A DNA stretch of 64,000 nucleotides, taken from NCBI RefSeq assembly GCF_001677475.2, contig NZ_CP015229.1; one strand, given 5' to 3'. The position numbers were made by a program, and so were the translations under genes. Under the pieces are notes generated by a model, which made no database searches, was not told the DNA's origin, and saw nothing but the letters and a program-made list of their open reading frames with translations. Of this stretch, positions 7,473 through 31,818 are shown piece after piece. The DNA comes from Escherichia coli (lineage in GTDB: Bacteria > Pseudomonadota > Gammaproteobacteria > Enterobacterales > Enterobacteriaceae). The first letter of the stretch is position 1. Each line of letters starts with the position of its first letter.

Positions 7473-7844
7473 GTGTCGCAAGATAACAACTTTAGCCAGG
7501 GGCCAGTCCCGCAGTCGGCGCGGAAAGGGGTATTGGCATTGACGTTCGTCATGCTGGGATTAACCTTCTTTTCCGCCAGTATGTGGACCGGCGGCACTCT
7601 CGGAACCGGTCTTAGCTATCATGATTTCTTCCTCGCAGTTCTCATCGGTAATCTTCTCCTCGGTATTTACACTTCATTTCTTGGTTACATTGGCGCAAAA
7701 ACCGGCCTGACCACTCATCTTCTTGCTCGCTTCTCGTTTGGTGTTAAAGGCTCATGGCTGCCTTCACTGCTGCTGGGCGGCACCCAGGTTGGCTGGTTTG
7801 GCGTTGGCGTGGCGATGTTTGCTATTCCGGTGGGCACCACATAG
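7473..7844 (+). pseudogene. codB: Cytosine permease CodB, 5' fragment (about 121 native codons) ending in 2 foreign codons and a stop created by the island junction
   Basis: Translation MSQDNNFSQGPVPQSARKG...VAMFAIPVG then TT*; the native continuation KATGLDIN... is found at 30919. Confidence 0.9.
7833..7836. other. Left island/chromosome junction (attL-like), GGCA shared with the right junction
   Basis: Native codB identity is lost after 7836; GGCA recurs at 30919-30922 where codB resumes. Confidence 0.6.
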
Positions 7845-7921
7845 GTCAATACCACCACAATAAAATTTTCCAATAAAAAAGCCCCATCACAAGGACAGGG
7901 CTATAGAATCAATTACTTACA

Positions 7922-8227
7922 TCACTTAATGTCTTTCATTCTACGAATACGCGCGCTTGCTTCGGATAGTTCTTCCAGTGTTACGTGATGTGCAAGCATA
8001 TAGACAGGAGTCGGATCGAATCCCTCGTGAGTATTGATCAGATGACTATTCCCGCCTTTAAACTCATCCTGTCCATCCCATATAGCGTACACGTCATCTT
8101 CTGCTACATAGATAATCAATCCAATAGGGGAGTCAGTAAGCTGGAAGATGCAGCCAGTAGAATCAATGCGATGTTCCCGAACGTCATCAACAGTTTCAAA
8201 GTCAATCTTAATATCTTTAGTCTTCAT
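7922..8227 (-). CDS. Hypothetical protein (101 aa), first gene inside the island's left end
   Basis: ORF only; no recognisable motif. Confidence 0.45.
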   Translation of the reverse strand: MKTKDIKIDFETVDDVREHRIDSTGCIFQLTDSPIGLIIYVAEDDVYAIWDGQDEFKGGNSHLINTHEGFDPTPVYMLAHHVTLEELSEASARIRRMKDIK

Positions 8228-8527
8228 GATTTGCCCTCGCGTGAAAAATATTTTCGATTATTTATAAAAAAAGACTTGACAAAATCAAAAGGTACTGTTC
8301 CACTGGTGAAATAAAGGGAGTTTTCGGCACCCCGGTTTTTGATGTGCGTGTGAGATTTCAAAACAGGTGCAGTGCAGCCCACCAGCGCGGTCGCTACGCG
8401 ACTATTAACACCCGCCAATCCCTTTCCCCGCCTCGATCTTTCATCTCGTTATAAATCGTTTTAGGCGCTCTCCTGAATGCGCAGATCAGATAAATAATTT
8501 TACGCAAATTTAAAGGAGGATAACCGG

Positions 8528-9079
8528 ATGAAAGAAGAATTAACCCTTACAGAAATTTCCCGCTTATACGGCTATACAATTAACGCCGCTAAGAAATGGC
8601 AAGAACGAGGAATGCCATTTAATACCAATACACGACGCGTACCAGCCAAAGAGGGGACCGAGTGGGTATTAAAAAATATCATCAACCCGCTTAAAGAAAC
8701 TACTGTCAAGGAACAAATCGACGTAGAGAAGTTACGCCGTGAGAGAGCATTAGCGGATGCAGCCGAACGAGAGAACCAGGAAGCAATGAATCTCCTGATT
8801 CCGGTCGGTTATGTAGAACAGGAACTAGCGGAATATTGCGGAAAGGTGAAACAGACTATTTTGCAGATCGCCACAATCGATGCTTTAGAAATTCTTGAAT
8901 CTGCCACTGACCAGAAAACATTGAAGAATAAGCTAAGGGAGATCATCGAGCGTCGTTTAAATGAAGTAGGGGACTTGTTCGAAAATGCGGATTTGGGAGA
9001 AGACGAGGAAGAAGAATTACCATTAATCGATGAACCGGAACAAGAACCAGAAGAAGACGATGAATTTGATGTGTCTTAA
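8528..9079 (+). CDS. Nu1-like small terminase / DNA-packaging HTH protein (183 aa) with acidic C-terminal tail
   Basis: N-terminus LTLTEISRLYGYTINAAKKWQERGMPF and EKLRRE segment resemble lambda Nu1 (QLADIFGASIRTIQNWQEQGMPV...EKLRRE); RBS AGGAGG upstream. Confidence 0.65.
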   Translation: MKEELTLTEISRLYGYTINAAKKWQERGMPFNTNTRRVPAKEGTEWVLKNIINPLKETTVKEQIDVEKLRRERALADAAERENQEAMNLLIPVGYVEQELAEYCGKVKQTILQIATIDALEILESATDQKTLKNKLREIIERRLNEVGDLFENADLGEDEEEELPLIDEPEQEPEEDDEFDVS

Positions 9080-9129
9080 AACGCGTTATAAATAAATGTA
9101 TGAAAGATGTTGAGCTGGTCAACGTCTAC

Positions 9130-9160
9130 GGGGGGAATCACCCCCCGCTAACCTTTTTCT
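9130..9160 (+). terminator. Rho-independent terminator after the Nu1-like gene
   Basis: GGGGGG-AATCA-CCCCCC hairpin followed by a T-rich tract. Confidence 0.55.
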
Positions 9161-9177
9161 TATTTGAGGATTTACCT

Positions 9178-9279
9178 ATGGTTGAATTTTTGATTTATCT
9201 GGCTGTAGGATTAACTATCGTATATTCACTGGCACATATTGGCATTTCTACTTTGTGTAACGCTTTCAAGTATCATTAA
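9178..9279 (+). CDS. Small hydrophobic peptide (33 aa, MVEFLIYLAVGLTIVYSLAHIGISTLCNAFKYH)
   Basis: Hand-translated short ORF below the ORF-track cutoff; single predicted TM helix; GGA-rich sequence upstream. Confidence 0.3.
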   Translation: MVEFLIYLAVGLTIVYSLAHIGISTLCNAFKYH

Positions 9280-9332: not shown

Positions 9333-9506
9333 ATGGATCTTTTTGTCTATTTCGCTACTCTGCTGTTTTTGACTATCGTCGCTGGCATTAAATTGATTTT
9401 TATCTCGCTGGTGGTGTTTTTCAAATTTCTAATCGGTACGCCTTACGGCTGGGTATGCTTCTTCTTGTTTATTCTTTTTAGTTGCTGTAAATCAGACACT
9501 AAATAA
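9333..9506 (+). CDS. Small hydrophobic protein (57 aa, two predicted TM segments)
   Basis: Hand-translated ORF MDLFVYFATLLFLTIVAGIKLIFISLVVFFKFLIGTPYGWVCFFLFILFSCCKSDTK; RBS AGAGGA upstream. Confidence 0.35.
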   Translation: MDLFVYFATLLFLTIVAGIKLIFISLVVFFKFLIGTPYGWVCFFLFILFSCCKSDTK

Positions 9507-9801
9507 TATTGTAATCTGCCTTTCTCCTACATGGTTATTAACAGGGAATTTTCGAAAGAGAGTTCCCGATTAAAAGCCATAAAACACACTCCAGTACAGT
9601 GTTTTCATAGTCAGTGATCTATACATCATAAAAACATAACAAGTATAGATTGAGTGTTAATCCTCCCGCCCTTCGGGGCGGTTATTTTCTGGCTTTACTA
9701 GATAATGTAGCATCATGTTCATTATAAACCTCATCTTTGTTGTGCAAACCTAACCTTAACCTAAGTATAGGGAGTCTCTTAAATGGGACTCCCTTTTTTT
9801 A

Positions 9802-10044
9802 TTATGCAACCACTCGAAGTGTAGGTTTCTTATGTTGTGTAGGTTTATTGCCATTTCGCCACTCAGGAAACACCTGATCCATCATAACCGCGTTAGTTTC
9901 ATCAATCAGCTTTAGAGTCTTTCGTAATGCGGCGTTATCAGCTTTAAGCGATTTAATCTCTGAATCCATCTTAGCCATACGCTCTTTCATGTTGGTAATT
10001 TCTAACATCAGATTACCCAGAAATTCTTTGTTTTGATTAATCAT
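9802..10044 (-). CDS. Hypothetical coiled-coil protein (80 aa)
   Basis: ORF with heptad-like region MKERMAKMDSEIKSLKADNAALRKTLKL; last gene of a leftward 3-gene cluster. Confidence 0.45.
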   Translation of the reverse strand: MINQNKEFLGNLMLEITNMKERMAKMDSEIKSLKADNAALRKTLKLIDETNAVMMDQVFPEWRNGNKPTQHKKPTLRVVA

Positions 10045-10059
10045 AGAATTACCCCTCTA

Positions 10060-11046
10060 TTAAGCTGCGTATGCGTAGGCGCTGTAGTTGGTGTCGTAAA
10101 TCGCGTCATGTAATGCCATGTGTGCTTCGCGGATCTCGTCTTCGTTTACTTCAATCTCTTCTTGTTCTTCTTCGGTATCTTCCCAGCTAGTTTTGAATTT
10201 AGTCATAAAGTTGGTGCGCAGAGTTTCAAAGTTGGTAACTGGTGCGGATTCTGCTTCAACCGGAACCGGAACAACTACCGGATCAGCTTCTTGTTCTACT
10301 TCTTCACCGTTACCCCAGCGATAGTTAAGGAGTTCTTCATCAATGGATTTTTCTTCAACTGCTTTAACTTCAACCGCTGCTACTTCGAAAGTGGTTTCCT
10401 GTGCTGCCAGTTCAGCTTTCAGAGATGCGTTTTCAGCTTCCAGTTCAGCGATGCGTGCTTTCAGTGCTTCAACTTCGGAAGATTCAACCACTGCAACTTC
10501 TTCTTTAACTTCTTCAACTACTACCGGAGCAACTTCTTTCTGTGCTTCTTTTTTGCAGAAGAAGGAGGAAGTAACCTGTAATGCGTGGTTGTAGAAGGAA
10601 CCGCCTTTAGCGGTGTTAACAGTACCAGAAACATCTTTTACAGTGGATTCAGTAGCAACAGTACGGAAGCGTTTAGCAACTTCCTGGGTCTCTACGCCGT
10701 ATTCGTTGCGCTTGCTCTTGTGATGCATTACAGCACGGTAGCCGGAAGCAGTTTTAACAACAGCCAGATAGTAAGTTTCATCGGCTTTAACAGCACGAGC
10801 GAAGCAATAAACGGATTCACCTTCTACCAGTGTAGGTTTAACGTGACGTTTGTCGAAACGGTTAGTGATCTGCCATTCAGCACCGTCTTTGATGCCAGCA
10901 TTCTGACGCATTTCGGTCAGAGTCTTACCGGATACTACTTCAAAGGATTTGTCTTGTTTGCTTGCTTTACCTTCCATAACAGTAATGTTCAGTTTGCCGT
11001 TGGATTTAATAAACATGTTGAAGGTAATGCGCTTAGAATTTTTCAT
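10060..11046 (-). CDS. Hypothetical protein (328 aa): basic N-terminal domain, acidic coiled-coil C-terminal half
   Basis: ORF; C-terminal EVEALKARIAELEAENASLKAELAA and many E/D-rich stretches; no catalytic motif recognised. Confidence 0.5.
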   Translation of the reverse strand: MKNSKRITFNMFIKSNGKLNITVMEGKASKQDKSFEVVSGKTLTEMRQNAGIKDGAEWQITNRFDKRHVKPTLVEGESVYCFARAVKADETYYLAVVKTASGYRAVMHHKSKRNEYGVETQEVAKRFRTVATESTVKDVSGTVNTAKGGSFYNHALQVTSSFFCKKEAQKEVAPVVVEEVKEEVAVVESSEVEALKARIAELEAENASLKAELAAQETTFEVAAVEVKAVEEKSIDEELLNYRWGNGEEVEQEADPVVVPVPVEAESAPVTNFETLRTNFMTKFKTSWEDTEEEQEEIEVNEDEIREAHMALHDAIYDTNYSAYAYAA

Positions 11047-11163
11047 ATAAATACTCCTGAATACTCTGTGTTAGTTTTAATGTGTCATACTAAAAGCCTC
11101 CTTGCGCCAACAGGGAGGCTTTTTTATTTTTAAAGCCATCATATAATTCTCAGTGAAAGGTTA

Positions 11164-19538: not shown

Positions 19539-21539
19539 ATGCTTAAATTTCGCCGCGATCTTAACGGTTACGGTGGAGTTATTAACGAAGGGCATAACGA
19601 TCAATACGAATTTGAAATTGCTTTCTCCAGTGAACAGCCTTATCAGCGCCAATTCTGGGATGAGCAAAATCAAGAAATGGTGGTATTAGATGAAATTCTG
19701 GTACATACACCGGAAGCGGTTGATCTGTCTCGTCTGAATAATAACGCTCCGTTGCTGTTCAATCACAATTTCGATAATCACATTGGTGTCGTTTGTAACG
19801 CTCGAATCGATGCGGATAACGTAGGTCGTGCTCTGGTTAAATTCTCCAAGCATGGGACTTTGGCTAATGATATTCGTAACAAAGTCATCGAAGGTACGAT
19901 GGAAAAAATTTCTGTCGGCTATGACATTAAAGAGTATCACATCGACTACGCCAAATCGCAACTCATTGTTTCTAAATGGATTCCTCACGAGGTTTCATGG
20001 GTCACGGTACCCGCAGACGACACAGTGGGTCTGAATCGCTCTCTAAATACTATCACAGTTAATTTGGAGGCTAAACGCGATATGACTAAAGAACAAATCG
20101 AAGAAATCAAAAACGAAGAAGCCGCTCCGGTTGAAGAAACTCCGGTAGAAGAAAATAAAGAACCGGAAGTTGAAGAAACTCAAGAGCGCCAAGTTGAAGA
20201 GAATAAAGAAAATGAAAATCTCGAAGACGGAAAAGACGCTGAACATCCTGAAAGTGTTGATGATGATAGTTCAACTGTTCGGGAAGAAGAAATAAAAGAA
20301 GAACGTGAAGCTGCTCCGGTTGAAGAAGAAAAAATTGAAGAAGTGGCTGAACGTTCCGAAGAAGACGAATTAGAAATCCGCGAGATCGCGCGGGAACTAA
20401 ATATTGATGACTCTGAATTAGCACGTGCATTGTCGATTAAAGACATGACGCCGGAAGCATTCCGCACTAAGGCACTAAATAATCTCGTCAATGCTCAACG
20501 TAATAACGAACAACAAATTAAGGACTCTAAAATGGAAAAAACTTTTGACCTGAACAACGTAATTCGCTCTCTGGTAGATGGTGCTGCTCTGGGTGCTAAC
20601 GAAGCTGAATATTCCGCTATGGCTGCTACTGCAACTATGCAGCGTGGTCGTGCTGCTCGTGGTGGCTCCGTATTCGTTCCGGCTGCTGCTCTGCGTGCTG
20701 CTGCTGCTGGTAACACTAAAGCTACTCTGGAAGCTGTAACCGACGAAAAACTGCTGACTGAATCCTACATCGAAATGCTGATGCCTCAGAGTGTTTTAGG
20801 CCGCCTCGGTGTGACCGTTCTGTCTGGTCTGAATAGCCCGATCGCTGTTCCGAAAATGACTGCTTCCAGCGTTGACGCTTTCGGCTTCGTTGATGAAAAC
20901 GGTGCTGCACCGGAAAGCAAAGCTCAGTTTGAAAACGTGAAAATGGCTCCTAAGACTTTCGCAGGTGGCAACCCGATCAGCCGTCAGTCTCTGAAAACCG
21001 TTCCGGGTATCGCTACCCTGATCACTGATCACATTAACAAAGCTGTTCGCATCAAACTGGAACAACTGATTCTGTCTGATAAAGCTAACGACCGTGGTCC
21101 GGCTGGTCTGGTTAAGCAACTGGTAGACGCGGGTCGCGTTACTAAGAAAGCCGCTTTCTCTTACAAAGACTTCCTGAAAGAAATTGCAGCACTGACCGAC
21201 GCTGGCGTTCCTGCTCAGGCGATCAAGTTTGCGATGAGCGGTGCAACTGCTGCTGAACTGGAATCTACCCTGAAAGATAACGGCGTTTCCGGTTATATCA
21301 TCGAAAACGGCAAACTGGCTGGTTACGAAGTAGTTACTTCTGGTGTTATCCCGGCAGACCACATCGTTCTGGGCGCGTTCGACGGTATCACCATTGGTGA
21401 GTGGGGCGGTCTGGAACTGGATATGGACGACACTACCTACCGTGCACAGTCTGCAATCGTTCCGCGTATCTGGGTAGATCTGGATTACGTTGTAACCCAG
21501 CCGGAAGCTCTGAAAGTTCTCCAGATTGGCGGTGAATGA
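19539..21539 (+). CDS. Fused prohead serine protease, E/K-rich scaffold-like linker and HK97-fold major capsid protein (666 aa)
   Basis: N-terminal PLLFNHNFDNHIGVV...KISVGYD fits the caudovirus prohead protease signature; residues ~190-320 are E/K-rich; C-terminal ~340 aa resemble HK97-type capsid proteins. Confidence 0.75.
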   Translation: MLKFRRDLNGYGGVINEGHNDQYEFEIAFSSEQPYQRQFWDEQNQEMVVLDEILVHTPEAVDLSRLNNNAPLLFNHNFDNHIGVVCNARIDADNVGRALVKFSKHGTLANDIRNKVIEGTMEKISVGYDIKEYHIDYAKSQLIVSKWIPHEVSWVTVPADDTVGLNRSLNTITVNLEAKRDMTKEQIEEIKNEEAAPVEETPVEENKEPEVEETQERQVEENKENENLEDGKDAEHPESVDDDSSTVREEEIKEEREAAPVEEEKIEEVAERSEEDELEIREIARELNIDDSELARALSIKDMTPEAFRTKALNNLVNAQRNNEQQIKDSKMEKTFDLNNVIRSLVDGAALGANEAEYSAMAATATMQRGRAARGGSVFVPAAALRAAAAGNTKATLEAVTDEKLLTESYIEMLMPQSVLGRLGVTVLSGLNSPIAVPKMTASSVDAFGFVDENGAAPESKAQFENVKMAPKTFAGGNPISRQSLKTVPGIATLITDHINKAVRIKLEQLILSDKANDRGPAGLVKQLVDAGRVTKKAAFSYKDFLKEIAALTDAGVPAQAIKFAMSGATAAELESTLKDNGVSGYIIENGKLAGYEVVTSGVIPADHIVLGAFDGITIGEWGGLELDMDDTTYRAQSAIVPRIWVDLDYVVTQPEALKVLQIGGE

Positions 21540-23346: not shown

Positions 23347-26271
23347 ATGCAATCAATCCAATTTAAACGAACTAGTGTTTCTGGCAAAAAACCTACGCCG
23401 GAACAATTACAGGTCGGTGAGGTAGCAATCAACCTTAAAGACCATGTTATTTTCACCAAAGACCGAGATAATGCCGTAGTTCAAATCTCTGTTTCTCCTG
23501 AAACTCACACTGCATTAGAAACTAAAGTTAATGCGAATAAGAAAGAATTAGACGGCAAGATTACTACAAATCACAACAATATTAACGCTAAAGTAGATGA
23601 AATTAAACAAACTACTGATGCAACTATCGCAGCAAATCACGCAGAAATTAACAATAAAGTTGATGTGATTAAGCGCGAAACCGATGCGACAATCACGGCT
23701 AATAAAAATAAAGCTGCTTCCGACCTTGCTGGCGTTAAAGCTGAATTGTCCGATACCATCACCGCTAATAAAAATGCGGCTGCTGTAGCAACTCAGGAAC
23801 TGGACACCCGCATCAATAAAAAAGTTGATGATAACAAAGCTAAAACTGATGCAACTATCGCCAGCAATCACAAAGCAATCAATGACAAAGTTGATTTGAT
23901 TAAGGCCGAGACTGACCGCACTATCGCAGCAAATAAAACATATGCTGATACTCAGCTAACTAATGCTACTAATGATCTGAATACTGTCATTGCTGCAAAT
24001 AAAAAAGAAGCTGCTGATAGCGTGGCTGCATTAACTAAGACTGTAAACACTAAAGATACAGCGATTCATAGAAAAGTTGACGAGAATAAAGCACTGACCG
24101 ACGCGGAATTATCCCGTTTGTCTGGACGACTTGAAGATGTTGCTAGTATTGGTCAAAACCGAGGCGAATTGCCAGTAGATGCTAATCTTGATCACTATGG
24201 TCCACGTTCAGAATTTGCTGGTATTTGGGGTAAATCGACTTCAACGAATGCACAACCAAGTCACAATTTCCCAGAAGAAAATGCTGTAGGTGTTCTGGAA
24301 GTTTTCACAGGCGGTCAATTCTCTGGGACTCAGCGTTATACAACACGCTACGGTAATATCTACATTCGTTCTCTTACCGCTACATGGAATGGTACTGATG
24401 GTCCGTGGTCGCCGTGGCGCAATATTCAGATGGGTACACGTCCGCTTTCGTCAACCATCGATCTTAATGATTTGGGTGGAGTTGAGCATTTTGGTTTATG
24501 GCGCAATAGCTCTAACTCAATTGCGGCTCTAGAAAGGAATTTCCCAGAAGCTGGGGCGATGGCACAAGGTCTTTTAGAAGTCTTTGAGGGTGGCAACTAC
24601 TCCCGCACTCAGCGTTATACGACCAGAATGGGCGTTGTATATGTTCGCTGTCTTGCTGCTGCATGGGATGCTAGTGCTCCTAAATGGGGTCCGTGGCAAC
24701 AAGTAGGTAATGTAACACCGTCTACTTTCTATGACGGAAACCTGAACAACTTCAAAACACCTGGTTTATATAACATTTTAGGCACTGACAAAGTTACTAA
24801 CCGTCCTGTTGCAGAAGGTGTTCCGGTTGAGATGACCGCATTGCTTGAGGTTAAACAGCGTGCTTCCGGTGGCGCTATTTTCCAACGTTTCACTACCGCA
24901 GGAACGGGAACTACTACCCGTGGTCGTGTTTTTGAACGTGCAATGACAAATAATATCTGGGGAGATTGGCACGAAGTACATACATCATATTCTATGCCAA
25001 TTACTTTAGGTATCGGTGGGATTAAAACACAATTAGAATCTTTAGATTGGCAAACTTTTGATTTTGTTCCTGGTAGCATGTTTAGCGTGCCATTGAATAA
25101 AATTACCAATATGCCAGCAAAAATGGATTGGGGAACAATTGACGGAAACCTGATCATGTTTTCCGTTGGTCCTAGTGAACACACTAGCACAGGGCGTACT
25201 GTTCAGGTTTGGCGTGGTACTGTGTCTCAAGCAAACTACCGTTATTTTGTTGTTCGTGTATTTGGTAATTCAGGAGAGAGAACTTGCACCGTTCGCCGTG
25301 TTGCTCTTGAGGATGGTCGCCATACATGGACAGCACAACAAGATTTTAACGGCGCGGTTAACTTCGGTGGGTCTGTTGTTAACTTTAAAACAGCCACTAA
25401 CTTTAATAACACTACCAGTTTTAAAACAGAAGCTAAATTTCTTTCATCTAATGCATTCCGTATGTATGGCGGTAATTTTGGTGCATTCTTGCGTAATGAT
25501 GGTGAAAGTGTTTATCTTCTTTCCACCAATGAAAATGATAAAGATGGAAACTATAATACAAATAGACCTTTCCGGTATCAGTTAAAAACTGGTGATGTTA
25601 CTTTGGGTGGAACTAGCGGTGCTGATATTTTAAGATTAAAAAGTAGTTCTCTTGCTGCTACCTTTGGCGGTGATGTTAATTTAAGTAAAGGCGTATTGAC
25701 GTTTGAAGCTGGCGGTAAGCAATCTCGCGATTATTTCCGGTTTAATCATTGGGGTGATAGCAATAAAGCTCGCGATAACATCATTCAGTTAGAAGATAGT
25801 AAAGGTGCTCATTTTTCCACTGAACGCACACTGGCAACGGGTGCAATCAAAACTAAGTTCTTTGGTGAAGTTGAATCCGATGGTCGATTAACTATTAAAC
25901 GTCCGGGTGATGCTATTGTATTATCGACTACAGCTAGCAACTCGTTGCATATTCGTGGTGATGTTGGTGGAAGCAATAACTGGTATATTGGTAAAGGTGG
26001 TGCTGATAATTCACTAGCATTTTATAGCTACGCAACTAAAGCGGGTATACACATCACAAATAATGGTGAGATATCATTTGCCCCGCAAAATTTTGCTGGT
26101 ATTAACATTAACAAAGACCGTATCTATATCAATGCTACACAATGGATTGCTAATCATTCCGGTTCATGGGATGGACAGTGGAGAGAAGAAGCACCCATCT
26201 TTATTGATCAGGGTAGTGTTGGACAAGATAGCTATTATCCTCTTATTAAAGGACATAGCCAGATCACAGGT
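23347..26271 (+). CDS. Tail fibre protein (974 codons), 3' end interrupted by an IS3-family element
   Basis: Repeated KVDxIKxxTDATIxANxxxIN helical repeats; C-terminal GSNNWYIGKGGADN resembles T7 gp17 tip motif NNWYIGRGSDN; stop codon TGA is the first 3 bases of the IS. Confidence 0.75.
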
Positions 26272-26328
26272 TGAATCGCCACGGGTTTAACAGACACCTC
26301 AGAGTCATTTAAGATGGCTTAAAGAGAG

Positions 26329-26613
26329 GTGCCCATGAGCGGTAAGCGTTATCCCGAAGAGTTTAAAATTGAAGCAGTCAAACAGGTTGTTGATCGCGGT
26401 TATTCTGTTGCCAGCGTTGCAACACGTCTCGATATCACCACCCACAGCCTTTACGCCTGGATAAAGAAGTACGGTCCGGATTCTTCCGCTAATAAAGAAC
26501 AGTCAGATGCTCAGGCCGAGATCCGCCGTCTCCAGAAAGAGCTGAAGCGGGTTACCGACGAACGGGACATATTAAAAAAAGCCGCGGCGTACTTCGCAAA
26601 GCTGTCCGACTGA
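26329..26613 (+). CDS. IS3-family transposase OrfA (HTH, leucine-zipper region)
   Basis: 94 aa ORF MSGKRYPEEFKIEAVKQVV...; ends shortly after the A7 slippery site. Confidence 0.85.
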   Translation: MPMSGKRYPEEFKIEAVKQVVDRGYSVASVATRLDITTHSLYAWIKKYGPDSSANKEQSDAQAEIRRLQKELKRVTDERDILKKAAAYFAKLSD

Positions 26614-27482
26614 GGTACGCCTTTATCCGTGACAACACCTGTTGCTGGCCTGTTCGCCTGCTCTGTCGGGTGCTGGATGTTCATCCCAGTGGTTTTTACG
26701 CCTGGCTTCAGCAGCCGCATTCACAACGCCATCAGGCAGACCTGAGGCTGACAGGGCAGATTAAACAGTTCTGGCTGGAATCGGGATGCGTCTATGGTTA
26801 TCGCAAAATCCATCTGGATCTGCGGGACAGCGGGCAACAGTGCGGAGTGAACAGAGTCTGGCGACTGATGAAACGTGTCGGGATAAAGGCTCAGGTCGGA
26901 TACCGGAGCCCGCGGGCACGTAAAGGCGAGGCCAGTATCGTGTCGCCCAACAGGCTCCAGCGACAGTTCAATCCGGATGCTCCGGATAAGCGTTGGGTAA
27001 CGGACATAACCTACATCAGGACCCACGAAGGCTGGCTGTATCTTGCCGTGGTTGTTGATCTGTTCTCACGCAAAATTATCGGCTGGTCCATGCAATCCCG
27101 GATGACAAAGGACATTGTCCTGAACGCACTGCTGATGGCTGTATGGCGCCGTAATCCCCAAAAACAGGTGCTGGTTCATTCGGATCAGGGCAGTCAGTAC
27201 ACAAGCCATGAGTGGCAGTCGTTCCTGAAATCACACGGCCTGGAGGGCAGCATGAGCCGTCGCGGTAACTGCCATGATAATGCGGTTGCAGAAAGCTTTT
27301 TCCAGTTGTTGAAACGCGAACGGATAAAGAAAAAGATCTACGGAACGCGGGAAGAAGCCCGCAGCGATATTTTTGATTACATCGAAATGTTTTATAACAG
27401 TAAGCGTCGGCATGGTTCCAGCGATCAGATGTCACCGACAGAATATGAAAACCAGTATTATCAACGGCTCGGAAGTGTCTAG
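26575..27482 (+). CDS. IS3-family transposase OrfB (integrase catalytic DDE domain), expressed as OrfAB by -1 frameshift; ORF-track ATG at 26670
   Basis: -1 frame relative to orfA, open from the slippery site; motifs WVTDITYIRT, VVDLFSRKIIGW, HSDQGSQYTS, NAVAESFF. Confidence 0.85.
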
Positions 27483-27548
27483 ATTATCCGTGGCGATTCA
27501 GACAAATTTATTAAATTTGGAATCACTACCCGAAAACCAGAAGAACGA

Positions 27549-27938
27549 ATGAGAGAGCAAACCAGAAAGAGCAACTTCACTCACCGATTAATCTTTACTC
27601 ATGAGTTTGAGGATGGTTGGAAAGCTGCCGATTTAGAGCATGAAGTAAAACAACGCTTCAAGACTCATGCCGCACCCTACAAAGATTTCAAGGATGGATG
27701 GTCGGAAACTCTGACTATCGATGAGTTGCCACACTTACAGCAACTGGTTTATGACTACCTAACCAATCAACCGGACGAGGCTAATATGTGGGTATCCCCG
27801 AAAGATGTATTTGATGACGATACATTCAAGCTACATACTCACTTCTACGGCATCAATAAACCGGAATTTTTCTGTATTGATGACGATAGTCCTGATTTAA
27901 TGGATGAATACTTTAATTCTCTCTTAGACGCTGCCTAA
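27549..27938 (+). CDS. Hypothetical protein (129 aa from first ATG; open frame extends upstream to the IS end at 27501), probably 5'-truncated; possible GIY-YIG/T5orf172-like domain
   Basis: Frame is open from 27501 (DKFIKFGITTRKPEERMREQ...); KFGITT...R...E pattern recalls the second motif of GIY-YIG/T5orf172 domains; weak, from memory only. Confidence 0.35.
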   Translation: MREQTRKSNFTHRLIFTHEFEDGWKAADLEHEVKQRFKTHAAPYKDFKDGWSETLTIDELPHLQQLVYDYLTNQPDEANMWVSPKDVFDDDTFKLHTHFYGINKPEFFCIDDDSPDLMDEYFNSLLDAA

Positions 27939-28011: not shown

Positions 28012-29709
28012 TTAAATTCCAAATTCCTGCAACAATCCCGGTTGTTCTTCTTCTGGTTTCCAGTTCTTATCTGTCAGCATTTCTAAACATGGATGCAGAA
28101 CAAGCCCGTTGCTCTCCAGAATCTGCCTATCATTGATAGTCTTCACGTCTACAAAAATTCTCCCTTTCCGGTTACGGCGTGACCTCTCGATCACTATCCT
28201 TTGCGTCTTCCCGTCGATGTACTCCATCACAAAATGATTATAATTGGTATCAATCTTGTAACATTTTATAGACTTAACAGCTTCTTTAATCTTCAATCGA
28301 ACTTTTAACCGTTCCTCGCTGCAAACATCCTCTAAATCAAATTGTGCGAGCTTCTCCCAGCCTTGAGAATCAACTGAATACATGTTCTCTTCTATTACCT
28401 TAATCTGGTTATAGATGGCCTCACGCTCATGATTCAGGGTAGTAATCTGGTCGGCTAACTCCTTCGTTGCTCCTGTCATTGCAGAAAGACTAATCAGGTT
28501 ATCAATCTTGCGTGAAATGTCTTCAATCTGGGCTTGCATTCCTGGGATCGGATTGGCCTTATCCTCAGCAATCCAGATTTTATCCGCCAGCAATTGCAAT
28601 ACAGCCTTATCCAGTTGATCACCACGAAAGCCCCAATTTGGATGATCACAATTGGTCCTCCTGCTATCTGCGCCATCGCACATATAACGATATTGGGCTA
28701 ATCTCTCTTTTGATGCTCCGCTTCTCTTAACCATACTTGCCCCACAATGACCACATCTAAGCAAACCAGCACCACTTAACAGGGTAATAACAGGACTAGA
28801 CTTAGTAGGATAAGAAAACGACCTCAGTCCTATAGTCTTCTTGAGTTGATAGAACTCGGCATCTTCCATCACTCGCGGGTAATAATCCTTTAACTCATAT
28901 GTCACACCTTCAATGGTTATCTCTTTGATACCAAGTAAAGCGCGGTTAGAGAACATCCTGGCTAACATAGAACGCGCCCATTTCTTAGGGGTATCTTTGT
29001 TCGTTGTGTAATTAGGCGGGGCGATTCTTTCATTCAGATAATCAAGAACCCGACCATTAGAATAACCATTCTGTTTTAATTCAACGATTTTCTTGATAAC
29101 AGGAAAATACACCGGATGTGGAAGCACATAACCCGATGAAGTATCAGCCCACCATATATTGCGACCAACTTCCTCGATTGCCACTGCCGGATTTTGTGGA
29201 TTCTCCTGATGGGCTTTAACCTTGAGTAGTGCGCTTGAGTTAGTGCGATTGCGTTTAGTCTGACTTTCCTCATTTGCACGAGCAAACAACATTACACTCA
29301 ACAGTAAATCGATGGGATTAGCATTAACCGATTCTTTGCTATATACCTTCCCATCCATACCAGTAACAATTGTTATTCCCCTGCGGATGATCGAAAGGAA
29401 TAGCTCTTGAGCTTCAATAACAGATTGACGGGAGATACGGTCTAAGTTTTCCACCACCAGCCAGCTACCAACCGGAACGGATCGACCAATTTCATCCAGA
29501 AAACGAGATAATGCACCTGTTTTACTGTTAGCCCCTTTGAATGCAGATACACCGAAATCCTGATAGGAAGTAACTAGCTCAAGATCATATTTTGCGGCTA
29601 TCTCTTTCGCTGTTCTCTTCTGGCGTTCAAATGAGCTACCATCGGCTTGCTTCATGGAAGAGAAGCGAATATACGAATACAGTTTAGTTTTCATACCATT
29701 TCCAAACAA
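28012..29709 (-). CDS. Large serine recombinase (integrase), 565 aa
   Basis: N-terminal resolvase-type catalytic domain (YSYIRFSSMKQ with candidate nucleophile Ser, VVENLDRISRQ), recombinase domain, Cys-rich zinc ribbon CGHCG...C...C, C-terminal coiled-coil. Confidence 0.88.
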   Translation of the reverse strand: MFGNGMKTKLYSYIRFSSMKQADGSSFERQKRTAKEIAAKYDLELVTSYQDFGVSAFKGANSKTGALSRFLDEIGRSVPVGSWLVVENLDRISRQSVIEAQELFLSIIRRGITIVTGMDGKVYSKESVNANPIDLLLSVMLFARANEESQTKRNRTNSSALLKVKAHQENPQNPAVAIEEVGRNIWWADTSSGYVLPHPVYFPVIKKIVELKQNGYSNGRVLDYLNERIAPPNYTTNKDTPKKWARSMLARMFSNRALLGIKEITIEGVTYELKDYYPRVMEDAEFYQLKKTIGLRSFSYPTKSSPVITLLSGAGLLRCGHCGASMVKRSGASKERLAQYRYMCDGADSRRTNCDHPNWGFRGDQLDKAVLQLLADKIWIAEDKANPIPGMQAQIEDISRKIDNLISLSAMTGATKELADQITTLNHEREAIYNQIKVIEENMYSVDSQGWEKLAQFDLEDVCSEERLKVRLKIKEAVKSIKCYKIDTNYNHFVMEYIDGKTQRIVIERSRRNRKGRIFVDVKTINDRQILESNGLVLHPCLEMLTDKNWKPEEEQPGLLQEFGI

Positions 29710-30912: not shown

Positions 30913-31818
30913 ATGTTAGGCAAGGCAACCGGGCTGGATATTAATATGCTGATTGCAGTCTCCGGTTTACTGATGACCGTCACCGTCTTCTTTGGCATTT
31001 CGGCGCTGACGGTTCTTTCGGTGATTGCGGTTCCGGCTATCGCCTGCCTGGGCGGTTATTCCGTGTGGCTGGCCGTTAACGGCATGGGCGGCCTGGACGC
31101 ATTAAAAGCGGTCGTTCCCGCACAACCGTTAGATTTCAATGTCGCGCTGGCGCTGGTTGTGGGGTCATTTATCAGTGCGGGCACGCTCACCGCTGACTTT
31201 GTCCGGTTTGGTCGTAATGCCAAACTGGCGGTGCTGGTGGCGATGGTGGCCTTTTTCCTCGGCAACTCGTTGATGTTTATTTTCGGTGCAGCGGGCGCGG
31301 CGGCACTGGGGATGGCGGATATCTCTGATGTGATGATTGCTCAGGGTCTGCTGCTGCCTGCGATTGTGGTGCTGGGGCTGAATATCTGGACCACCAACGA
31401 TAACGCACTCTATGCGTCGGGTTTAGGTTTCGCCAACATTACCGGTATGTCGAGTAAAACCCTTTCGGTGATTAACGGTATTATCGGTACGGTCTGCGCA
31501 CTATGGCTGTATAACAATTTTGTCGGCTGGCTGACCTTCCTTTCGGCAGCTATTCCTCCGGTAGGGGGCGTGATCATCGCTGACTATCTGATGAACCGTC
31601 GCCGCTATGAGCACTTTGCGACCACGCGTATGATGAGTGTCAATTGGGTGGCGATTCTGGCGGTCGCCTTGGGGATTGCCGCAGGCCACTGGTTACCGGG
31701 TATTGTTCCGGTCAACGCGGTATTAGGTGGCGCGCTGAGCTATCTGATCCTTAACCCGATTTTGAATCGTAAAACGACAGCAGCAATGACGCATGTGGAG
31801 GCTAACAGTGTCGAATAA
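30913..31818 (+). pseudogene. codB: Cytosine permease CodB, 3' fragment (fortuitous ATG at 30913 created by the junction)
   Basis: Translation (ML)GKATGLDINMLIAVSGLLMTVTVFFG... matches the CodB C-terminal two thirds. Confidence 0.9.
30919..30922. other. Right island/chromosome junction (attR-like), GGCA
   Basis: Native codB reading resumes at 30919 (GKATGLDIN...); imperfect inverted symmetry between the inner island ends (ACCACCACAAT at left vs reverse-complement CCAACCACATT at right). Confidence 0.6.

Follow-up and report, generated by a model that had tools for sequence, protein, structure and literature searches.

The open reading frame (ORF) at positions 8528-9079 of a 64,000-nucleotide stretch of Escherichia coli DNA (contig NZ_CP015229.1, assembly GCF_001677475.2; the whole stretch is called the window hereafter) probably encodes the cognate small subunit of the terminase in a lineage of temperate phages. 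The protein is a member of the lambda Nu1 family, and its gene is named terS here. The window copy lies in a defective prophage inserted in codB, and the gene of the large subunit, terL, does not follow it directly. Since terS and terL lie 6-9 kb apart throughout the lineage, the terS product most likely serves the phage itself in packaging and is not a hijacking factor of a satellite. The terminase is of the known Nu1 type; what is new here is its gene order, which is unusual and lineage-wide.

The ORF starts with an ATG, and a strong ribosome-binding site (AAAGGAGGA) is found 8 nt upstream of the start codon. The encoded protein matched phrog_57, 'terminase small subunit', with an E-value of 2.6e-15, residues 1-164 aligning to positions 9-186 of the 199 positions of the profile, which amounts to a similarity over the full length of the family, including its C-terminal helical part. 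Lambda Nu1 is assigned to the same phrog_57 (E 1.3e-76). When a profile built from 50 homologues of the protein was compared with the PDB, it found the solved N-terminal, DNA-binding domain of lambda TerS (Nu1) in two entries (6hn7_B, E 3.8e-15; 1j9i, E 6.7e-13). The Pfam family Phage_Nu1 (PF07471) was passed by 22 of the 50 homologues at E ≤ 0.001, so that the link of terS to Pfam is only transitive. Usable homology came from profile methods, single-sequence searches being insufficient: with the protein alone, neither the PDB search nor PADLOC gave anything usable, and the BLASTP alignment with lambda Nu1 was confined to residues 4-30 (E 4e-5). A first reading of the window made from the sequence only had called this ORF Nu1-like and had proposed a pairwise alignment with Nu1 and with the Rpp proteins of E. 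coli phage-inducible chromosomal islands (PICIs). The Nu1-like identity was upheld by the full-length phrog_57 match and by the profile match to the Nu1 domain, and appears to hold at the profile level only; the pairwise alignment worked for Nu1 over the short segment just given, and the single-sequence search found no Rpp protein at E ≤ 10. Judged by these comparisons, the ORF is a genuine, very divergent and mostly unannotated member of the Nu1 family.

The AlphaFold2 model of the protein had a predicted local distance difference test (pLDDT) score of 89.8. In this model, residues 1-57 are arranged as helix-helix-strand-helix, a MerR-like winged-helix domain homologous to residues 1-68 of Nu1. 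The wing motif, RGGGKG in lambda Nu1, is NTNTRRVPAKEG in the terS protein, which also bears a long acidic tail that lambda Nu1 lacks.

From the stop codon of terS to the start codon of terL the gap is 6,417 bp, with genes on both strands, in agreement with the distance of about 6.4 kb read from the sequence beforehand. The terL gene at 15497-17404 is the sole large terminase gene of the element, and its homologues in related loci carry the Pfam domains GpA_ATPase and GpA_nuclease. Nu1-type genes are expected immediately upstream of terL and co-transcribed with it, in a phage with a GpA-type large terminase; terS shares its phage with a GpA-type large terminase and does not have the adjacent position. 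The earlier remark that a divergent gene takes the place directly upstream of terL proved accurate (14806-15408, minus strand), and the 88-bp region between the two genes (15409-15496) is 90-98% identical across relatives, those with a TerL of the 58%-identity class included. The terS gene starts 691 bp from the left junction of the element at 7837, near the left end as had been described. A TerS-like profile match in another ORF would have spoken against the original assignment, and no other ORF of the element matched a TerS-family PHROG.

The separation of the two genes is a property of the whole lineage. Related loci (numbered with an L) were drawn from complete E. coli genomes, from Logan, ENA and NCBI contigs and from IMG/VR, and the layout was counted in the 34 loci with enough downstream sequence, in which TerS is 38-100% identical. 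In all 34, a GpA-type terL follows terS on the same strand at a distance of 6.0-9.1 kb. They include prophages at other integration sites (ycdX and a hicB-like gene) and the distant members L009, L013 and L042, in which TerS is 38-46% identical; an IMG/VR entry of 22,343 bp, whose TerS and TerL are both 100% identical, probably comes from the genome of the window. The order in L013 is recombinase, lysozyme, cargo, terS, early genes and terL, so that on a circular map terS follows the lysis/integration region, like Nu1 in lambda, with an early/regulatory block interposed. Around the circle, the lineage has terL, then the head, tail and lysis genes, the integrase and attP with variable cargo, and terS; a block of early/regulatory genes of about 5-8 kb, encoded on both strands, leads back to terL. 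In the full-length prophage of E. coli strain 39EVA, the remaining ORFs had tail, endonuclease and head-related matches and none matched TerS.

This gene was detected in 63 of 5,426 complete E. coli genomes (about 1%), always on the chromosome, and the lineage has E. coli, Salmonella and related enterobacteria as hosts. Its TerS is mostly annotated as 'hypothetical protein', and a literature search on this prophage family or on terminase genes that are not adjacent yielded nothing of relevance. Among 50,697 phage records, the best TerL match reached 43% identity, in a patchwork record, and the next about 30%; these searches point to a temperate, siphovirus-like lineage that is absent from the cultured phages of the collection searched. 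The sole phage record with homologues of both subunits was that of Escherichia phage DCP80 (L003/L043, GenBank PQ671644.1). It is filed as a 141-kb T4-like Gaprivervirus and looks like a patchwork, whose first ~26 kb correspond to an unrelated siphovirus-like contig with a GpA-type TerL, a TerS of the window family and an endolysin, the remainder consisting of scrambled T4-like genes, including a 495-nt 'terminase large subunit' fragment beside a tail sheath gene. Because of this composition, its coordinates are uninformative on genome ends. A 37%-identical TerS homologue was also seen alone in an enterobacterial chromosome, in two ENA metagenome contigs (L015 and L016), where it adjoins a Mu_F-like fragment and the type VI secretion system genes Hcp/Tlde1 and is probably a remnant. 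No terL was present in the ~8.5 kb downstream of the L015 copy, and L016 stops ~580 bp past terS.

The element that carries terS in the window is flanked by the N-terminal (7473-7844) and C-terminal (30913-31818) parts of codB, and alignment to an intact codB placed its junctions at 7836/7837 and 30922/30923, with the crossover at GGCA/AGGCAA. E. coli 39EVA has a ~35.8-kb prophage at the same codB site and with the same recombinase, which continues past the head genes with tail tube, tape measure, tail tip and endolysin genes. Compared with this prophage, the window element lacks ~18 kb of tail and lysis genes, and an IS3 element is found there between two truncated genes, one for the tail fibre and one for an endonuclease; strain 39EVA carries longer homologues of the endonuclease fragment (27549-27938). 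The truncated junction of the window was present in none of the 5,426 complete E. coli genomes. The head genes are mosaic, the portal/capsid region of the window (18007-21533) having no DNA match in 39EVA. By this comparison the element is a deletion derivative of a ~36-kb tailed prophage, with an IS3-associated loss of its tail and lysis genes, and a decayed prophage of this kind is not a satellite. The name of island that it had been given from the sequence could therefore not be kept, since it encodes a GpA-type TerL, a portal and a capsid of its own and has full-length tailed relatives, which mark it as a truncated prophage. The window terS is an intact relic in a prophage that is incapable of autonomous phage production.

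Conservation along the two subunits was compared across the related loci. Residues 121-183 of TerS are 94-98% identical across the E. coli loci, and the N-terminal DNA-binding domain 53-100%, the value for the ycdX prophage of E. coli ETEC1739 against the window being 55%. Two classes of TerL were distinguished, one roughly 88-100% and the other 58% identical to the window copy; their first 16 residues are identical, and they diverge from residue 17. The net charge of the TerS tail is -19 and that of the TerL N-terminus +6 to +7. In lambda, the C-terminus of Nu1 binds the N-terminus of gpA, and the conservation and charge pattern of the TerS tail and the TerL N-terminus is circumstantial evidence that would fit this paradigm. 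The ~58% class of TerL was seen in L001, L019, L021-L023, L025, L026, L029-L031, L034, L035 and L037, and both classes stand behind a nearly identical terS (up to 99%) and an 88-bp upstream region that hardly differs. We infer, by analogy with lambda Nu1/gpA, that the N-terminal winged-helix domain of TerS would bind a recognition site by its own gene, for which 8282-8480 is a candidate, that the central helices would oligomerise the protein, and that the invariant acidic C-terminal tail would recruit TerL via its conserved basic N-terminus, the recruited TerL then cutting and packaging the DNA.

The DNA next to terS was searched for such a site. The noncoding DNA upstream of the gene contains a block with almost no variation among the E. 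coli relatives, and a sliding-window identity plot delimited a divergent cassette between conserved flanks at ~8320-8760, made up of upstream DNA and terS codons 1-78. The 15-nt core of the almost invariant block, of the AAAATCAAAAGGTACT type, lies upstream of terS in four of five lineages, and in each lineage it is accompanied, ~10-20 nt further on, by a GAAA(A)C ... GTTT(T)C-type symmetry, which takes the form of an 18-nt inverted repeat in L011 and of a perfect 7-bp one in L013. The region 8297-8527 of the window contains an imperfect GAAA..GGGA..GTTTTC symmetry at ~8308-8345, a variable stretch at ~8336-8480 and, at 8493-8498, an AATAAT -10-like hexamer inside an imperfect TGCGyA..TTACGCA inverted repeat. 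A scan of 8228-8527 for sigma-70 promoters found none, the TTGACA at 8276 being without an acceptable -10 at 16-18 nt. Two other possibilities for this region were rejected. A structured RNA in the upstream block was discarded, as its fold was no better than that of shuffled sequences (z-score +1.35) and an Rfam search of the conserved block gave no match, and an inverted repeat (8437-8452 / 8520-8535) that might have masked the terS start was not conserved in relatives.

In lambda, cosB lies just upstream of Nu1, and the comparison of lambda with phage 21 has shown that cosB and the N-terminal domain of Nu1/gp1 form a packaging-specificity cassette. The packaging site (cos) of the present lineage may lie within 8230-8527, as the sequence-only reading had offered as an alternative; the conserved motif beside terS and the variable cassette agree with this candidate location, which we regard as a little short of probable. 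Contig ends gave no cos position: L012 (NCBI) ends in codB, L030, a metagenomic uncultivated virus genome (UViG), has a host gene of the hicB-like kind at its start, and the remaining IMG/VR loci are excerpts of predicted prophages, so that no virion termini were obtained from any of them.

The system thus described resembles that of lambda gpNu1 and gpA in the phrog_57 TerS with its homologous winged-helix domain, in the GpA-type TerL and in the candidate recognition site just upstream of terS, as for cosB. It differs in that the lambda genes overlap (191-736 and 711-2636), whereas terS and terL are 6.4 kb apart, and in that the pairwise identity with Nu1 is limited to ~27 residues. As in the lambda/phage 21 cassette, variation in the DNA-binding domain of TerS goes together with variation in the noncoding DNA beside it, the part that would face TerL being constant, but the binding of TerS to the window DNA is what we infer here. 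A precedent for detached small and large terminase genes in a cos phage is provided by P2/186, in which the terminase genes M (small) and P (large) are not adjacent. In P2, M and P are in the late capsid cluster, a few kb apart, in divergent operons beside cos. Their proteins belong to other families. In the window lineage it is an early/regulatory region that separates the two genes.

Several observations weigh against the assignment of terS as the cognate, cos-recognising small terminase. The protein itself remained below threshold with Pfam Phage_Nu1 (i-E 6.5 and 7.7), no model matched in the NCBIfam scan, and a Foldseek search of the AlphaFold2 model against the PDB had a best E-value of 0.34, which is not significant, the weak matches (E ~0.3-3) being MerR, the Nu1 N-terminal domain and Xis folds (Pukovnik Xis, RdfS). 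The 15-nt core lies downstream of terS in L006, a position that also argues against a simple terS promoter. The co-variation of the DNA-binding domain with the adjacent DNA can arise from linkage alone, the 16 common TerL codons may merely mark a recombination boundary, and one TerS C-terminal domain associated with two TerL classes of 58% identity could reflect loose coupling in place of a specific partnership. Cos-type packaging is putative in this lineage, as is the position of cos. To our knowledge, no characterised lambda-type terminase has an early region between its two genes.

The relation to satellites had to be considered closely. PMC6739421 describes Rpp proteins as 144-153 amino acids (aa) long, sharing with lambda TerS only the winged helix-turn-helix (wHTH) fold, dimerising through a C-terminal coiled coil with a Gly-containing alpha-6 helix, and acting by binding the helper TerS on behalf of PICIs that depend on the helper terminase. 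It had been proposed from the sequence that terS may encode a packaging-redirection factor of this kind. Such a factor would attach to a helper phage's TerS and direct it to the cos of the element, as do RppA/B/C of E. coli PICIs. The terS gene does stand alone, away from terL, and its product has a MerR-like winged-helix DNA-binding fold in common with RppC (6hlk), which the profile of terS homologues matched at E 6.3e-8. This match is, however, confined to residues 3-50 and weaker than the profile match to lambda Nu1 (E 3.8e-15), the PHROG of which is matched over the full length, and since Nu1 itself matches RppC only at E 0.035 (residues 4-52), the likeness to Rpp comes down to the shared DNA-binding fold. 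The protein has 183 aa and an acidic tail, against the length and coiled-coil alpha-6 given for Rpp in PMC6739421. Its element is a truncated prophage with its own TerL, portal and capsid and not a PICI devoid of TerL and capsid, and the identical layout is found in full-length phages without any other TerS candidate. A redirection factor is thus very unlikely, and the proposal was abandoned. With terS, terL, portal, capsid and integrase genes and no complete tail module, the window element resembles capsid-forming PICIs (cf-PICIs; bioRxiv 10.1101/2022.09.08.507074), but the resemblance is superficial because it lost its tail genes in a one-off deletion linked to an insertion sequence (IS), here of the IS3 family. 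A cf-PICI is tail-less by design and recurrent in many genomes, whereas the junction of the window was in none of the 5,426 complete E. coli genomes and the full-length relatives are complete tailed prophages.

The terS product might also be no terminase but a MerR/Xis-like regulator of Nu1 ancestry, for example a directionality factor of the serine integrase or a transcription factor. The weak fold matches to MerR-family proteins and excisionases (Pukovnik Xis, RdfS) would suit such a role, as would the distance of 350-1,700 bp between terS and attL in the E. coli members, the upstream control region of its own with an inverted repeat, and the fact that no directionality factor is annotated in the element. 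However, the homology to Nu1 is not limited to the wHTH and takes in the C-terminal helical domain, no TerS candidate would otherwise be left in full-length phages that have a GpA-type TerL, and the distance to att and the integrase varies (5.5 kb in L013), the linkage to terL and to the motif being constant. This explanation is therefore unlikely. We also considered that a detached TerS could double as small terminase and as excision directionality factor or regulator, coupling excision to the start of packaging. Such a dual role would explain why terS has a control region to itself and is not part of the late operon of terL; it is suggested by the position of terS beside attP and the serine-integrase gene in most E. 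coli members and by the MerR/Xis-type fold, no recombination directionality factor being recognisable in these phages, and we hold it to be very improbable. A weaker variant is that terS and its adjacent site may form an exchangeable packaging-specificity module that reassorts among TerL/head modules. That terS is foreign to the phage, having stayed behind from another decayed prophage or arrived as a moron at the edge of the element, is scarcely credible: the slot between attL and terS does hold variable cargo (a 101-aa ORF in the window, GIY-YIG/CapR in L011, TIR in L013), but all related loci examined have terS in the same relative place, whichever of several integration sites they occupy and with protein identities as low as 38%. 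The reading of terS as the lineage's own Nu1-type small terminase is thus the one that we retain.

The coordinates of the features are listed in Table 1. Downstream of terS, the 'own terminator' that the sequence-only reading had given the gene was recovered in part: a GC-rich hairpin does follow the stop codon (9129-9147), with a 7-bp all-GC stem and a fold z-score of -3.45, but its U-tract starts 8 nt past the stem, and the hairpin is absent from the calls of the terminator scan. Immediately after terS come two small, very hydrophobic ORFs, at 9178-9279 (33 aa from an internal ATG with a GAGGA site) and 9333-9506 (57 aa), which are followed by canonical terminators at 9666 and 9769. Relatives have a 94-aa hypothetical protein annotated at the place of these ORFs, whose product could possibly be a membrane peptide or toxin-like.

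Within the region between terS and terL, the minus-strand proteins of 60 aa (11164-11346), 85 aa (14546-14803) and 200 aa (14806-15408) have in common a paralogous ~55-aa domain, which is duplicated in the 200-aa protein (BLASTP among the three, E 8e-7, 2e-5 and 0.005); none of the three matched anything in PHROG or NCBIfam. In the close (E. coli-group) relatives the 200-aa gene is conserved, also divergent from terL, and may for this reason regulate the late operon. Between divergent genes lies a 1.3-kb noncoding stretch without any convincing ORF (11347-12629), partly conserved in relatives. In it, the iteron (A)CCTACAC(T) is repeated about ten times at 11820-12000, and CAyAGCACGAATTGCTAAAGCGG occurs twice, at 11532 and 11605. 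The stretch could serve as a replication origin or as an array of operators; genes for replication or for a repressor were not recognisable in the lineage.

The slot between attL and terS (7837-8527 in the window) carries variable cargo and looks like a hot spot for morons or defence genes. It contains a 101-aa ORF without matches on the minus strand of the window (7922-8227), a 398-aa GIY-YIG/CapR-like protein in L011, a CAP12/TIR-domain protein and YuaX in L013, and a 264-aa secreted protein in L030. At the other end of the element, the phage arm provides an in-frame ATG at 30913, which keeps a reading frame open over the distal part of codB, two thirds of the gene (profile residues 120-416).

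Table 1. Positions of terS, terL and other features of the codB prophage in the window
Feature	Position	Strand	Evidence or remark
Whole element, defective prophage of ~23.1 kb inside codB	7837-30922	.	codB flanks, junction mapping
15-nt core, AAAATCAAAAGGTACT-type motif	8282-8296	+	consensus AAAwmAAwAGkTACT; ≤ ~250 bp from terS in five lineages
Candidate cis-acting region (packaging recognition and/or terS control)	8297-8527	+	alignments, repeats, sliding identity; putative function
terS, Nu1-family small terminase, 183 aa	8528-9079	+	PHROG, homologue profile, Pfam on homologues, AlphaFold2 model
terS protein domains	residues 1-57, winged helix; 60-86, long helix; 93-153, helices; 154-183, disordered acidic tail		AlphaFold2 model
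Two hairpins downstream of the terS stop	9105-9147	+	second CGGGGGG-AAUCA-CCCCCCG, possible non-canonical terminator
Intervening region between terS and terL	9802-15408	both	mostly genes annotated without function, Rha/Ant-like regulator, noncoding DNA
Rha/Ant-like regulator	13463-14305		within the intervening region
Conserved 200-aa gene, divergent from terL	14806-15408	-	two copies of a ~55-aa domain
Intergenic region upstream of terL, 88 bp	15409-15496	.	presumed divergent promoter region
terL, GpA-type large terminase, 635 aa	15497-17404	+	phrog_15, E 2e-135; homologues carry PF05876, PF20454
Portal gene	17982-19493	+	
Prohead protease-major capsid fusion gene	19539-21539	+	
Tail-fibre gene, 3' end cut off by the IS	23347-26274	+	975 aa vs 1121-1177 aa in relatives
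IS3-family insertion sequence, ~1.23 kb	26272-27503	+	at the deletion joint
Endonuclease gene, C-terminal fragment	27549-27938	+	matches only 468-548 of the 576-position phrog_681
Large serine recombinase (integrase)	28012-29709	-	phrog_95, E 1e-55

The present analysis corrects a tempting annotation, in that a lone Nu1-like gene in a tail-less element resembles the Rpp gene of a PICI or a cf-PICI and is yet the normal terS of a decayed prophage; this is useful to prophage and satellite annotation pipelines, the mechanism itself not being new. It also draws attention to a lineage that is found in ~1% of the complete E. coli genomes and has no sequenced isolate in the phage collection other than the patchwork record. 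If the site adjacent to terS is the packaging site, the lineage would offer naturally swapped cassettes of domain and site for the study of terminase specificity. It would then also show that a Nu1/gpA-type holoenzyme can do without linked, co-translated genes for its subunits.

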